Shown here: in pieces, positions 2,666-30,379 of the stretch | Position numbering within the stretch: the first letter of the stretch is position 1 | Layout of the letters: every line of letters begins with the position of its first letter | From: Candidatus Levyibacteriota bacterium | GTDB taxonomy: Bacteria; Patescibacteriota; Microgenomatia; Levybacterales; UBA12049 | Direction: 5' to 3' | Length of the DNA stretch: 64,000 nucleotides | Assembly: GCA_027334565.1 (NCBI GenBank) | Contig: DAHWUP010000004.1 | Span: forward strand, 15,138-79,137 | Translations under genes and position numbers: made by a program | Notes under the pieces: generated by a model | The model's input: only the letters and a program-made list of their open reading frames with translations | What the model was told of the DNA's origin: nothing | Database searches by the model: none

Positions 2666-2668
2666 ATG

Positions 2669-3031
2669 TGGAGATGTCCGAGAATGACCCGGAGTCCAAG
2701 AATGCGTTTAAAAAAATCTACAAGCTTATTCTGCCTTTAAGAGTCGCCTTATTCTTTTCCGGTAGAAGGGAATAAATAAGACCAAGATTATAAATTCAAT
2801 AAGGACCCAATCAGATTCCTTATCAAGTTCCCGACTTTGTTTATGCTCAAAAAATCTCATCGGGAGAAGATTTGATGAACACCTCAAATTACTTAAGCGT
2901 ATGCGTAAGCAAATTGCGGGCTAAAACGTGAAGTTCTAGCATTTAATTTTTGATTCTTGTTTTACGGCTACTAATCAAAGCCGGCTTGCATTTTTTAAAG
3001 TGCTAAATCCTGTCGATGCAATTGCATCCCC
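2669..3031 (-). ncRNA. ssrA: tmRNA (SsrA)
   Basis: Minus-strand 5' end GGGGAUGCAAUUGCAUCGACAGGAUUU matches the tmRNA 5' consensus (GGGGcUG...GGAUUCGACGGGAUUU). 3' end is ..GGAC-UCCGG-GUCAUUC-UCGGA-CAUCUCC-A, giving a 7-bp acceptor with the G3-U70 Ala identity pair. Candidate tag ORF starts at resume codon GCU about 100 nt from the 5' end. The gene lies immediately downstream of smpB. Confidence 0.7.
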
Positions 3032-22101: not shown

Positions 22102-22647
22102 ATGTCCATTTATACGAAATTTGGCGATAAAGGAAAGACAAGTTTATTTGCAGGAAGGGTCGTTTCCAAATCAAGCGTAAGGGTTAACACCTATGGGTCG
22201 CTGGACGAACTCAATAGTTATCTGGGGGTCATCTTATCCAAGATAAAAAACAAAAAGATTAGGCAAGAGTTAACACTGGTCCAAAACGATTTGTTTGAAA
22301 TAGGCGCATATCTTGCCAACCTTTCTTATAGCAAAGGACAGGCGCTTGATAAATATTTAGAAAAAAGGGTTTCGCAGTTTGAAAAAGAGATTGACACGTT
22401 AACGAACACAATGCCACCTCTTAAAAATTTCATTTTACCGGGAGGTTCCGAGACCGGCGCTAATTTGCATTTTTCCAGGACCTTAACCAGGAGGGCGGAA
22501 AGGCGCGTCGTCGAACTTTCGGAAAAAGAAAAAGTAAGCCCGAAGGTACTGATATACATGAACAGACTTTCGGACCTGCTTTTTACTTTTGCTAGATTTA
22601 TAAATAAAGAAAATAAAGTTAAAGAAATTATTTGGTCGTCACGATAG
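22102..22647 (+). CDS. ATP:cob(I)alamin adenosyltransferase, PduO/MMAB type
   Basis: MSIYTKFGDKGKTSL N-terminus and overall PduO-type pattern; 181 aa. Confidence 0.75.
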   Translation: MSIYTKFGDKGKTSLFAGRVVSKSSVRVNTYGSLDELNSYLGVILSKIKNKKIRQELTLVQNDLFEIGAYLANLSYSKGQALDKYLEKRVSQFEKEIDTLTNTMPPLKNFILPGGSETGANLHFSRTLTRRAERRVVELSEKEKVSPKVLIYMNRLSDLLFTFARFINKENKVKEIIWSSR

Positions 22648-22654
22648 AATAATT

Positions 22655-22779
22655 TCTTCGGGTGAAAGCCGGTGTAATCCCGGCGCTGTGCCGCAACTGT
22701 AAAGCCAGAGCCCCGTAAAAAATCTTCCGAGCAGAAGTATGTTTTTAATATACAACTCCTCGGAATTTGAGGAGTTTTT
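22655..22779 (+). promoter_or_regulatory. cobalamin-riboswitch-like leader with terminator/SD-sequestering expression platform
   Basis: GGGUGAAAGCC-GGUGUAAUCC-CGGCGCUGU-GCCGCAACUGUAA-AGCCAGAG matches the core of the cobalamin aptamer consensus (GGGAAnccGGUGnnAAnUCC..CnGnnCCCGCCACUGUaa..AGCCAG B12-box start). Downstream hairpin ACUCCUC-GGAAUUU-GAGGAGU plus U5 contains the SD (GAGGAG) 5 nt before the ATG at 22780. Confidence 0.45.
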
Positions 22780-26908: not shown

Positions 26909-26980
26909 GCGTCCATAGCTCAGCGGTAGAGCGCTACTCTTATAAAGTAGATGTCCTTGGTCCGAATCCAAGTGGACGCA
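26909..26980 (+). tRNA. tRNA-Ile (anticodon UAU)
   Basis: Hand-fold: GCGTCCA acceptor, GCTC/GAGC D stem, CTACT-CTTATAA-AGTAG anticodon arm, CTTGG-TCCGAAT-CCAAG T-arm, discriminator A. Confidence 0.7.
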
Positions 26981-27185
26981 CTTTCGGTTAATGTTATTAG
27001 ACAAAGCTATCGGTTTAAAAAAGACTTTTGCGCACCGGTCATTTTCCGGTTCGCGGATTTCATAAGATTATAACGTAAATTTCCTTCTAGGAAGAACATT
27101 TCAGTTCCTCCATGAAAATGGTCCCACAAAGCGAATCCTTCAGGATTTTTAAGTTTTATAACAGTTTTTTAACCGAGGAACGAAT

Positions 27186-28508: not shown

Positions 28509-28538
28509 AGTACTAGGGGCGAGATTCAAATTGTTCAG

Positions 28539-28610
28539 TACCAACGGCTGGATTCGAACCAGCGACTTGACGCTTATGAAACGTCCGCTCTACCCCTGAG
28601 CTACGTTGGC
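28539..28610 (-). tRNA. tRNA-Met/Ile2-type (anticodon CAU), G1-U72 wobble
   Basis: Hand-fold: GCCAACG acceptor pairing CGTTGGT, GCTC/GAGC D stem, GACGT-TTCATAA-GCGTC anticodon arm, GCTGG-TTCGAAT-CCAGC T-arm, discriminator A. Confidence 0.75.
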
Positions 28611-29288
28611 GTAATCAATTTGGGATAATCCTTCTAATAACCCCATAATTTTACCATAAATCCTTGAAGGCTGCTGGACCCGGACTATAAGCGTACCATA
28701 ATACTCGTTATAATTGGCATATATTTTTTTATTCTGTGCTTTTCTGAATACAGTTTTATTAAAGCGATTTATTGGAATTCCGGTTAACTCCGACCAATAC
28801 CTTTTAATAATAGTATCCCGTTTCTTGTGGATGAGATTAATGCCGACATAACAATATATATCTTTATAATTAATATTTAGGCATTTCTGAAGCCACAAAA
28901 TGAAAAATTTTACTAATTTTGGATCAGAATTACACAGTTCTATTTTTCTTCCTTTTTTGCTTCCTTCTCCCCAATATAAAGCAATACCTGCTATTAACAT
29001 TTCTCTGTTTGTAAGCTTACCGATTTCTTTTATCCCCTGATTCTTATTTTTTTCAAAATTTTTTAACCATCTCTCCTTTTGTAATAATGCACTTTTTAAT
29101 CTGCCGCGCTCTGACCCTAATATGCTTGATTTTCTTAGGTGCTCTAATTGTTCAACCGTTAAAATAATATCCCTTACCCAAATACTTGCTGAGCTTTTAG
29201 ATACCCCGAGTTTTAAAGCAATTTCCTTTACGCTTTTGCCCCGTTTTCGCATCTGACGCGCCTTAATTCTCAATGAATATTTTGCCAT
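28590..29288 (-). CDS. HTH-domain protein with LAGLIDADG-like motif (putative homing endonuclease), paralog of 307-960
   Basis: 232 aa. HTH-like KEIALKLGVSKSSASIWVRD. LIAGIALYWGEGSKKG (LAGLIDADG-like). CNSDPKL and YWSELTGIP blocks shared with the 307-960 ORF. Stop codon lies 21 nt inside the 5' end of tRNA-Met. Adjacent to a group I intron-like RNA. Confidence 0.45.
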   Translation of the reverse strand: MAKYSLRIKARQMRKRGKSVKEIALKLGVSKSSASIWVRDIILTVEQLEHLRKSSILGSERGRLKSALLQKERWLKNFEKNKNQGIKEIGKLTNREMLIAGIALYWGEGSKKGRKIELCNSDPKLVKFFILWLQKCLNINYKDIYCYVGINLIHKKRDTIIKRYWSELTGIPINRFNKTVFRKAQNKKIYANYNEYYGTLIVRVQQPSRIYGKIMGLLEGLSQIDYANVAQG

Positions 29289-29469
29289 ATGAACGAACAG
29301 TAATATTAGTTAATATTTATATTATAACGTCGGTTTGTTTAATTTGTCAAAGCTGTTTTCATTGCTTATTGTTCTTAATTTTGTTAAAATATCAATACAC
29401 GCGGGGTAGTGTACAGTGCACATGAGGCTTAATAATGGGCCGTTTTAATAGTAATATTAGAATAGAATC

Positions 29470-29700
29470 TGGCTATATCGGTGAACCCCTAGCGTTTAGG
29501 GTAACACCGAGGGAAGTCGAAATCTAAAATTGAGATCCCGTAGAGACTACACGCCAGACATCCTGAGTTTATCTAAGGATGATGATATAGTCCGACACTC
29601 TAGGTAACTGGAGAAACAGGAGGCATAATCTCATAGGCTAGGCGCAACTCCTAGCCCCGCAACATCGAAAATTTAGCCTCAGATTTGACATTTTTCTTCG
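29470..29700 (+). ncRNA. group I intron-like ribozyme core (approximate boundaries)
   Basis: R element UAGAGACUACA (29541-29551) and S element GAUAUAGUCC (29584-29593), nearly identical to the group I consensus (..CAGAGACUACA / AAGAUAUAGUCC) and to Tetrahymena (GAUAUAGUCGGAC). P8-like hairpin CAUCCU..AGGAUG between them. GGGAAG / UCCCG P4-like pairing upstream. P9-like hairpin GGCUAGG-CGCAACU-CCUAGCC downstream. Confidence 0.5.
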
Positions 29701-29719
29701 GTTTTCAGATGATTAGTTT

Positions 29720-30379
29720 ATGCTTGAAGAATTTAAATTAAAACACCCAGTAAGATATAAATATCTTTTTACTGTAACTACATTTTCAAAATACCTCGCT
29801 TTATCAATGTTTATTATTTTTCCTATTATTGGATTTTATTTGGGTATGAAATATCAAGAGCAATTATCTTCAAACAAACTGGTTGAAGCTCAAAATTCCA
29901 CAATTTATAAAGTTACTCCTACTTTATCACCAAATTTAATAACTCAAGACTGGCAAGTCTATATAAATAAAAGTTATAATTACACGTTTAAAGTTCCCAA
30001 AGATTGGATAATTAAAGGAGAAAGTAGTGACAACGTTATTTTTGTTAACTCTTCCGATATTAAATATTTTAATGATACTCAACAATTACCACATCTTAGT
30101 AAAGGAAATCAACTAGAGGTGGTCATAACTGCGGACAATTCTTACACACGCGCAGAACCAGTTGAGAGTTATTTTGTAAACCCCGGAAAGGAGATCTTGT
30201 TAGATGGAGAAAAAGGAATGTTATGGACGACCGATAAGGCATATAATTATCAAGGACAAATGGGTTATGAATTAAGAGTTTTTCACAAAGGAAATGGTTA
30301 CTTTATATATATGCTTAGTGCTTCTCCACAAGATTTACTTTTTAATCAAATTCTATCAACTTTTAAGTTTACAAATTAG
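29720..30379 (+). CDS. hypothetical single-TM protein
   Basis: 219-aa ORF with one N-terminal TM helix; no recognisable motif. Confidence 0.4.
   Translation: MLEEFKLKHPVRYKYLFTVTTFSKYLALSMFIIFPIIGFYLGMKYQEQLSSNKLVEAQNSTIYKVTPTLSPNLITQDWQVYINKSYNYTFKVPKDWIIKGESSDNVIFVNSSDIKYFNDTQQLPHLSKGNQLEVVITADNSYTRAEPVESYFVNPGKEILLDGEKGMLWTTDKAYNYQGQMGYELRVFHKGNGYFIYMLSASPQDLLFNQILSTFKFTN

Follow-up and report, generated by a model that had tools for sequence, protein, structure and literature searches.

The window analyzed here, a 64,000-nucleotide (nt) stretch of contig DAHWUP010000004.1 from a Candidatus Levyibacteriota bacterium, carries on its plus strand a small group I intron set between two halves of a tRNA gene, next to a divergent open reading frame (ORF) and a tRNA-Met gene (Table 1). 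In an Rfam scan of the whole window, the group I model (Intron_gpI, RF00028; gathering score 50 bits) matches positions 29420-29614 (+) with 95.4 bits and an E value of 2.6e-23, and the alignment spans the full model (positions 1-253); the element is a group I ribozyme, far beyond chance. The near-consensus R (TAGAGACTACA, 29541-29551, +) and S (GATATAGTCC, 29584-29593, +) elements lie where the original prediction, made from the letters of the sequence, had placed them, as does the P8-like hairpin between them. Minimum free energy folding of the last eight exon bases together with the intron recovers P1, P2, P3, P4, P5, P6/P6a, P8 and P9, among them the P4-like and P9-like pairings of that prediction. 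P1 has a U.G wobble at the splice site, a 3-bp P10 is possible, and the last intron base is an omega-G. The architecture is small, with P2 present, neither P5abc nor P7.1/7.2, and no internal ORF. Assignment to the small bacterial tRNA-intron class holds, while the size estimate of about 230 nt gives way to an intron of 194 nt.

Both flanks hold the tRNA halves that the original prediction had looked for without success. By eye, CGCGGGG... stands upstream of the intron and ...CCCCGCAA downstream, and ARAGORN, run with its intron option on the genomic sequence, reports a 70-nt tRNA-Met(cat) at 29400-29663 with a 194-nt intron ("aggct-Intron-cataa"). The joined exons form a cloverleaf with the anticodon loop CUCAUAA and a predicted junction ...GAGGCU/CAUAAUCUC..., which places the insertion point between nucleotides 33 and 34 of the anticodon loop (U33/C34); the T arm has the stem CTAGG/CCTAG and the loop CGCAACT, and CCA is not encoded in the 3' exon. 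To this geometry belongs the pairing of the terminal GGCU of the 5' exon with the intron guide sequence, which forms P1. When six candidate 5' sites were combined with seven candidate 3' sites, only three of the 42 joins yielded a tRNA, and 29429/29624 alone gave a CAU tRNA together with an intron ending in omega-G; the two others, both tRNA-Ile(tat), were discarded for want of a terminal G in the intron. Neither default ARAGORN nor the Rfam tRNA model finds a tRNA at 29400-29663 in the genomic sequence. The gene escapes default finders because its D stem has only 3-4 bp, its D loop (ACAGU) lacks GG and its T loop reads CGCAACU, in addition to the need for the intron option. The intron thus interrupts the anticodon loop of a tRNA(CAU) and is not an orphan, and none of the candidates offered for it earlier (a free-standing or degenerate intron, an intron in an unknown non-coding RNA or in the 5' untranslated region (UTR) of the gene at 29720, or a new ribozyme arrangement) applies.

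Table 1. Features of the split tRNA locus and its surroundings, in window coordinates.
Feature	Position	Strand	Details
tRNA-Ile(UAU)	26909-26981	+	ARAGORN
Elongator-type tRNA-Met(CAU)	28538..28610	-	G1-C72 pair; 790 nt from split tRNA; Rfam/ARAGORN
232-amino-acid ORF	28590..29288	-	divergent from split tRNA; start 111 nt from tRNA 5' end
Sigma-70 consensus TTGACA-18-TATAAT (candidate promoter)	29321..29350	-	12/12 consensus matches; about 32 nt upstream of ORF ATG
5' exon of tRNA(CAU)	29400..29429	+	acceptor 5' strand CGCGGGG, short D arm, anticodon-stem 5' strand, C32, U33
P1	29426-29431/29436-29441	+	splice-site wobble U29429.G29438
Group I intron	29430..29623	+	194 nt; Rfam RF00028, minimum free energy fold, covariation counts
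P2	29442-29450/29455-29463	+	GUAA loop
P3	29468-29473/29553-29558	+	
P4	29478-29483/29505-29510	+	
P5	29487-29491/29497-29501	+	
P6	29511-29514/29536-29539	+	
P7	29545-29549/29588-29592	+	pseudoknot built from R and S elements
P8	29559-29564/29575-29580	+	hairpin between R and S
P9	29598-29603/29608-29613	+	GUAA loop
Omega-G	G29623	+	last intron base
P10 (possible, 3 bp)	29624-29626 with 29435-29437	+	anticodon CAU with AUG
3' exon of tRNA(CAU)	29624..29662	+	anticodon CAU (29624-29626), anticodon-stem 3' strand, T arm, acceptor 3' strand CCCCGCA, A73

We read 29400-29662 (+) as one gene, an initiator-type tRNA(CAU) split at U33/C34 by a 194-nt group I intron that is predicted to be self-splicing, and give this reading a probability of about 0.9. 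P1 of the precursor would arise where the exon-end GGCU pairs with the internal guide GGGCC, and the U33.G wobble would lie at the 5' splice site. Once folded, the core (P3-P9), whose guanosine site is formed in P7 by the R and S elements, would bind a free guanosine for attack after U33. The freed 3' hydroxyl of U33 would then attack after omega-G, possibly aided by the short P10 in which the CAU anticodon meets the AUG of the guide region, and ligation of the exons would give a 70-nt tRNA with the anticodon loop CUCAUAA.

The conservation of this gene was followed in an alignment (A2) of 25 orthologous Microgenomates-type pre-tRNAs. Within the intron structure, 87.7% of alignment cells are paired, compared with 78.3% in shuffled alignments and 34-49% in controls with slid partners, and overall covariation reaches 0.336 as opposed to 0.160 in shuffles; in neither measure did any of 500 shuffles attain the observed value. 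Cells in which both partners have changed number 158 where 58.5 are expected, and compensatory changes occur in P2 (9 of 9 pairs), P3 (4 of 6) and P9 (4 of 6). Pairing reaches 99% in P3, P4 and P9, where compensatory changes occur, and 100% in P7, which does not vary; the splice-site U.G wobble is present in 25 of 25 sequences, and omega-G (G224 of the alignment, window position 29623) is invariant. The tRNA stems are 97.3% paired and contain seven compensatory pairs. Compensatory changes in the stems of both the intron and the tRNA point to structural selection on both, which is not the mark of a decayed remnant.

The same 5' exon recurs in 36 loci with the intron, which share the junction as well, and in about 16 without it; it was also found in at least 80 metagenome loci. 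A second sample was anchored on the neighboring ORF: a scan of species-representative genomes matched 272 genomes, of which the best 80 loci were classified with Rfam, nhmmer and ARAGORN alongside a strict rule-based exon search (29 loci that the latter could not resolve were for the most part sorted by the other three). A split tRNA adjoins the ORF in 45 of these loci and an intronless initiator-type tRNA(CAU) in 18; one locus has the intron elsewhere, 12 have no initiator-type tRNA within 1.5 kb, and four have flanks too short to tell. Intronless alleles of the same tRNA thus occur at the same genomic position, where exons can be identical with and without the intron, and among the metagenome loci three tRNA haplotypes occur in both states. 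An orphan or decayed group I remnant, or an intron in an unknown non-coding RNA or in the 5' UTR of the 29720 gene, can hardly be sustained, since the silence of default tRNA finders at this position, which speaks for it, is set against tRNA halves that flank the intron exactly, exons and intron conserved with compensatory changes, these intronless alleles, and a catalytic core that is invariant across orthologs.

The unusual loops of the split tRNA belong to a wider pattern. Among 77 distinct tRNAs of this type, the dinucleotide at the G18G19 position of the D loop changes in step with the first bases of the T loop, without exception: GG is found with T[T/C]C in 51, AG with [C/T]GC in 25, and CG with TGC in one. 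The window tRNA is of the AG/CGC type (D loop ACAGT, 29413-29417; T loop CGCAACT, 29643-29649). To judge from these sequences, the covariation looks like a re-coded elbow contact between G18 and position 55. Intronless tRNAs of the AG/CGC type (loci L017, L033 and L051) are found by ARAGORN and are not reported by Rfam RF00005 at its gathering score.

The ribozyme and its tRNA host are of a known kind, a further instance of a published family. In a survey of tRNA introns that covered 95 complete Patescibacteria genomes (Nakagawa et al. 2026, mSystems; PMC13011429), position 33/34 of tRNA-fMet is treated as a well-characterised insertion site, and "Met (CAT) 33/34" introns are listed in two Microgenomatia genomes (GCA_001029755.1 and GCA_013426185.1). 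The two published Met(CAT) pre-tRNAs are 76% and 67% identical to the window pre-tRNA and share with it the host tRNA type (exons TGCGGGGTAGTGTACGG...), the site, the guide and the core, whereas the window represents a different species and sequence, and its tRNA is of the sub-type with AG in the D loop and CGC in the T loop. The survey labels the tRNA Met, not initiator, and makes no mention of an adjacent ORF (PMC13011429). A hidden Markov model (HMM) built from the window's intron family gives 148 bits for a published Patescibacteria Met 33/34 intron, 22-59 bits for other Patescibacteria tRNA introns (Asn, Asp, Tyr and Phe), and 3-22 bits, lower in most cases, for introns of other phyla that the published supplement labels IC3. 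The introns of Patescibacteria tRNA-Asn, -Asp and -Tyr (35/36) and tRNA-Phe (33/34) form a related lineage that, like the window intron, is small and has GNRA loops on P2 and P9; they differ in their hosts and mostly in their site (35/36), and some of them carry HNH endonuclease genes inside (PMC13011429). The survey places none of the Patescibacteria tRNA introns in IC (PMC13011429), and the low HMM scores of IC3-labelled introns agree with this statement. The group I intron at 33/34 of cyanobacterial tRNA-fMet, some copies of which encode the PD-(D/E)XK endonuclease I-Ssp6803I (Bonocora and Shub 2001, cited in PMC3984707; PF11645 cases in PMC13011429), belongs to a different sequence lineage, given these low scores. 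Its endonuclease lies within the intron, whereas the window intron has no ORF and the candidate endonuclease gene lies outside it.

Sequence features make the split tRNA very probably an initiator-type tRNA. Bacterial initiator tRNAs are distinguished by a mismatch at 1:72 with A73 and by three consecutive G-C pairs at 29-31/39-41. The window tRNA has a C1xA72 mismatch and A73, and its acceptor stem (CGCGGGG/CCCCGCA) and A73 are those of Escherichia coli tRNA-fMet. At the same syntenic position, an intronless ortholog (L066) shares 92% identity with the three tRNA genes that stand in tandem between mltA and amiC in E. coli, the metZWV initiator genes. The separate elongator-type tRNA-Met in the window retains a G1-C72 pair, and the tRNA-Ile(UAU) gene suggests that the reading of AUA codons does not involve a lysidine-modified tRNA-Ile2(CAU), a point relevant to the assignment of the two CAU tRNAs.

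Several points weigh against this reading of the gene: 1) position 1:72 is C.A in 14 of the 25 orthologs and a U1-A72 pair in 11; 2) the anticodon stem, A29-U41, G30-C40 and G31.U39, departs from the canonical three G-C pairs, although the canonical-looking L066 ortholog likewise has A29; 3) the homologous gene is labelled "Met", not "fMet", in the published survey (PMC13011429); 4) the initiator assignment was made within the 64-kb window, and another initiator may exist elsewhere in the genome; and 5) actual splicing of the window pre-tRNA is something we infer from sequence. The first three of these also favor an elongator tRNA-Met or a lysidine-bearing tRNA-Ile2(CAU) as host, with the same intron but with splicing that would not gate initiation. 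Such a host is improbable, given the elongator-type tRNA-Met 790 nt away, the tRNA-Ile(UAU) that covers AUA codons, and an acceptor stem and A73 equal to those of E. coli tRNA-fMet, with an ortholog 92% identical to genes of the metZWV type. If the initiator-type tRNA is the cell's own initiator, as we infer, splicing would be essential for translation initiation.

As originally predicted, the divergent ORF is not part of the ribozyme and is encoded on the other strand, while the LAGLIDADG label that it had been given is weakly supported. Its product has an N-terminal helix-turn-helix (HTH) and a C-terminal domain with a LAGLIDADG-like "LYWGEGSKK" motif. Searches of Pfam, NCBIfam and PHROGs returned the N-terminal HTH only and no LAGLIDADG family match, and an ORF profile searched against the PDB likewise matched HTH domains and gave no significant LAGLIDADG match, with I-DmoI at an E value of about 0.9. 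In an alignment that is not statistically significant, "LYWGEGSK" falls on the second I-DmoI motif "LYVAEGDK", and E108, invariant in 22 sequences, falls on the catalytic E117. AlphaFold models are of reasonable confidence, with a predicted local distance difference test (pLDDT) score of 81 for the full protein and 85 for the domain alone (predicted template modelling score, pTM, 0.80). All of the 239 ORF homologs are from Patescibacteria. At E <= 1e-3, the ORF family comprises 5453 representatives of 50%-identity clusters, and it includes proteins of 440-576 amino acids in which the module is present two or three times (P0217, P0223, P0224, P0229, P0260 and P0262).

In four homolog contexts the same three-part module appears: the ORF itself, a group I intron that lies upstream of it and on the other strand, and a tRNA-Met that overlaps the end of the ORF. 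In the window, the first 21 nt of tRNA-Met (28590-28610, -) encode on the same strand the last seven codons of the ORF with its stop (...ANVAQG-stop), and in the majority of the 80 ORF-anchored loci the two genes overlap or directly abut. If a co-transcript of the ORF and tRNA-Met were processed by RNase P, the mRNA would be cut upstream of the stop codon. The sigma-70 consensus match sits in the 111-nt divergent spacer common to the ORF and the split tRNA. The block of initiator-type tRNA, ORF and tRNA-Met lies between DivIC and MurI both in the window and in loci L002 and L003, in opposite orientation; either the cassette was inverted or it was inserted both ways. Small GIY-YIG ORFs (81-89 amino acids) also occur near the split tRNA of some related loci, at 1861-2106 in L004, directly past the tRNA 3' end, and at 498-767 in L002.

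Co-occurrence of the ORF and the intron was assessed in the metagenome sample, which was not anchored on the ORF: contigs were scanned for the tRNA 5' exon, giving the at least 80 loci mentioned above, and only loci whose upstream flank measured 850 nt or more were counted. Among 20 intron-containing alleles, seven have the adjacent divergent ORF, three have an ORF homolog elsewhere and 10 have no ORF, whereas all 33 intronless alleles are without it, adjacent or elsewhere (7/20 versus 0/33 for the adjacent ORF, Fisher exact p = 5e-4, a value that ignores kinship). The spacer between the divergent elongator tRNA-Met and initiator-type tRNA genes measures 51-147 nt without the ORF and 760-836 nt with it, so that the ORF appears as a clean insertion or deletion of about 700 bp between the two tRNA(CAU) genes. 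ORF-bearing loci of this sample carry seven different tRNA haplotypes. The presence/absence insertion of the ORF and its enrichment beside intron alleles may be new. An obligate role of the ORF as splicing maturase is unlikely because half of the intron-containing alleles (10/20) have no ORF in the locus.

One explanation, which we hold tentatively and consider rather unlikely, is that the ORF is a free-standing gene of the homing-endonuclease type, whose spread by gene conversion would carry the ORF-less intron along. More specifically, and also rather unlikely, the ORF as a homing endonuclease, or as something recently derived from one, may insert itself between the divergent initiator-type and elongator-type CAU tRNA genes of Patescibacteria, with double-strand-break repair co-converting, or collaboratively homing, the intron 110-140 bp away. 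Collaborative (trans) homing, in which a free-standing endonuclease is paired with an ORF-less intron, is known for the cyanophage S-PM2 psbA intron with F-CphI and for T4 mobE with the nrdB intron (PMC3984707, PMC2790892, PMC6083498). The arrangement of ORF and intron resembles the cases reviewed in PMC3984707, at least by analogy; these, however, concern phage protein-coding genes, whereas the window presents a tRNA gene on a bacterial chromosome, and its ORF is a candidate nuclease that also adjoins intronless alleles. If true, mobility of this sort would explain the polymorphism, on identical exons, of tRNA introns described as endonuclease-less and of limited mobility. Against it stand 18 loci in which the ORF adjoins an intronless allele whose anticodon arm has not changed, the downstream tRNA-Met as the most constant partner of the ORF, and conservation of the ORF like that of a resident gene. 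The intronless anticodon arm as target of the ORF, considered separately, is weakened by the same 18 ORF-bearing loci with that arm intact.

We lean slightly toward the ORF being a resident WhiA-like DNA-binding protein, unrelated to intron mobility, whose co-occurrence with the intron would go back to the common descent of certain Microgenomatia and Paceibacteria lineages. WhiA itself joins an HTH to a degenerate LAGLIDADG scaffold. Set against a resident WhiA-like protein are the clean presence or absence of the ORF as an insert between two tRNA genes, a pattern often shown by mobile genes for free-standing endonucleases; the 7/20 versus 0/33 distribution; the seven tRNA haplotypes of ORF-bearing loci; the invariant glutamate aligned to E117 of I-DmoI; and the very large size of the family, with its multi-copy fusions.

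Two further RNAs were matched elsewhere in the window, a clear transfer-messenger RNA (tmRNA) at 2666-3031 (-) with 100.5 bits, and a borderline AdoCbl-II riboswitch at 22646-22721 (+) with 38.6 bits (gathering score 36.5).

The reading of the locus as a split tRNA gene removes an apparent anomaly, in that what had seemed to be a ribozyme without a host is a tRNA gene overlooked by standard annotation. Genomes of this clade will appear to be without this tRNA(CAU) unless the tRNA search is intron-aware. Should the endonuclease activity of the ORF product be real, tRNA introns without an endonuclease gene of their own would have a means of spreading. If the split tRNA is the sole initiator tRNA of the cell, translation initiation in these bacteria would hinge on the self-splicing of an RNA.
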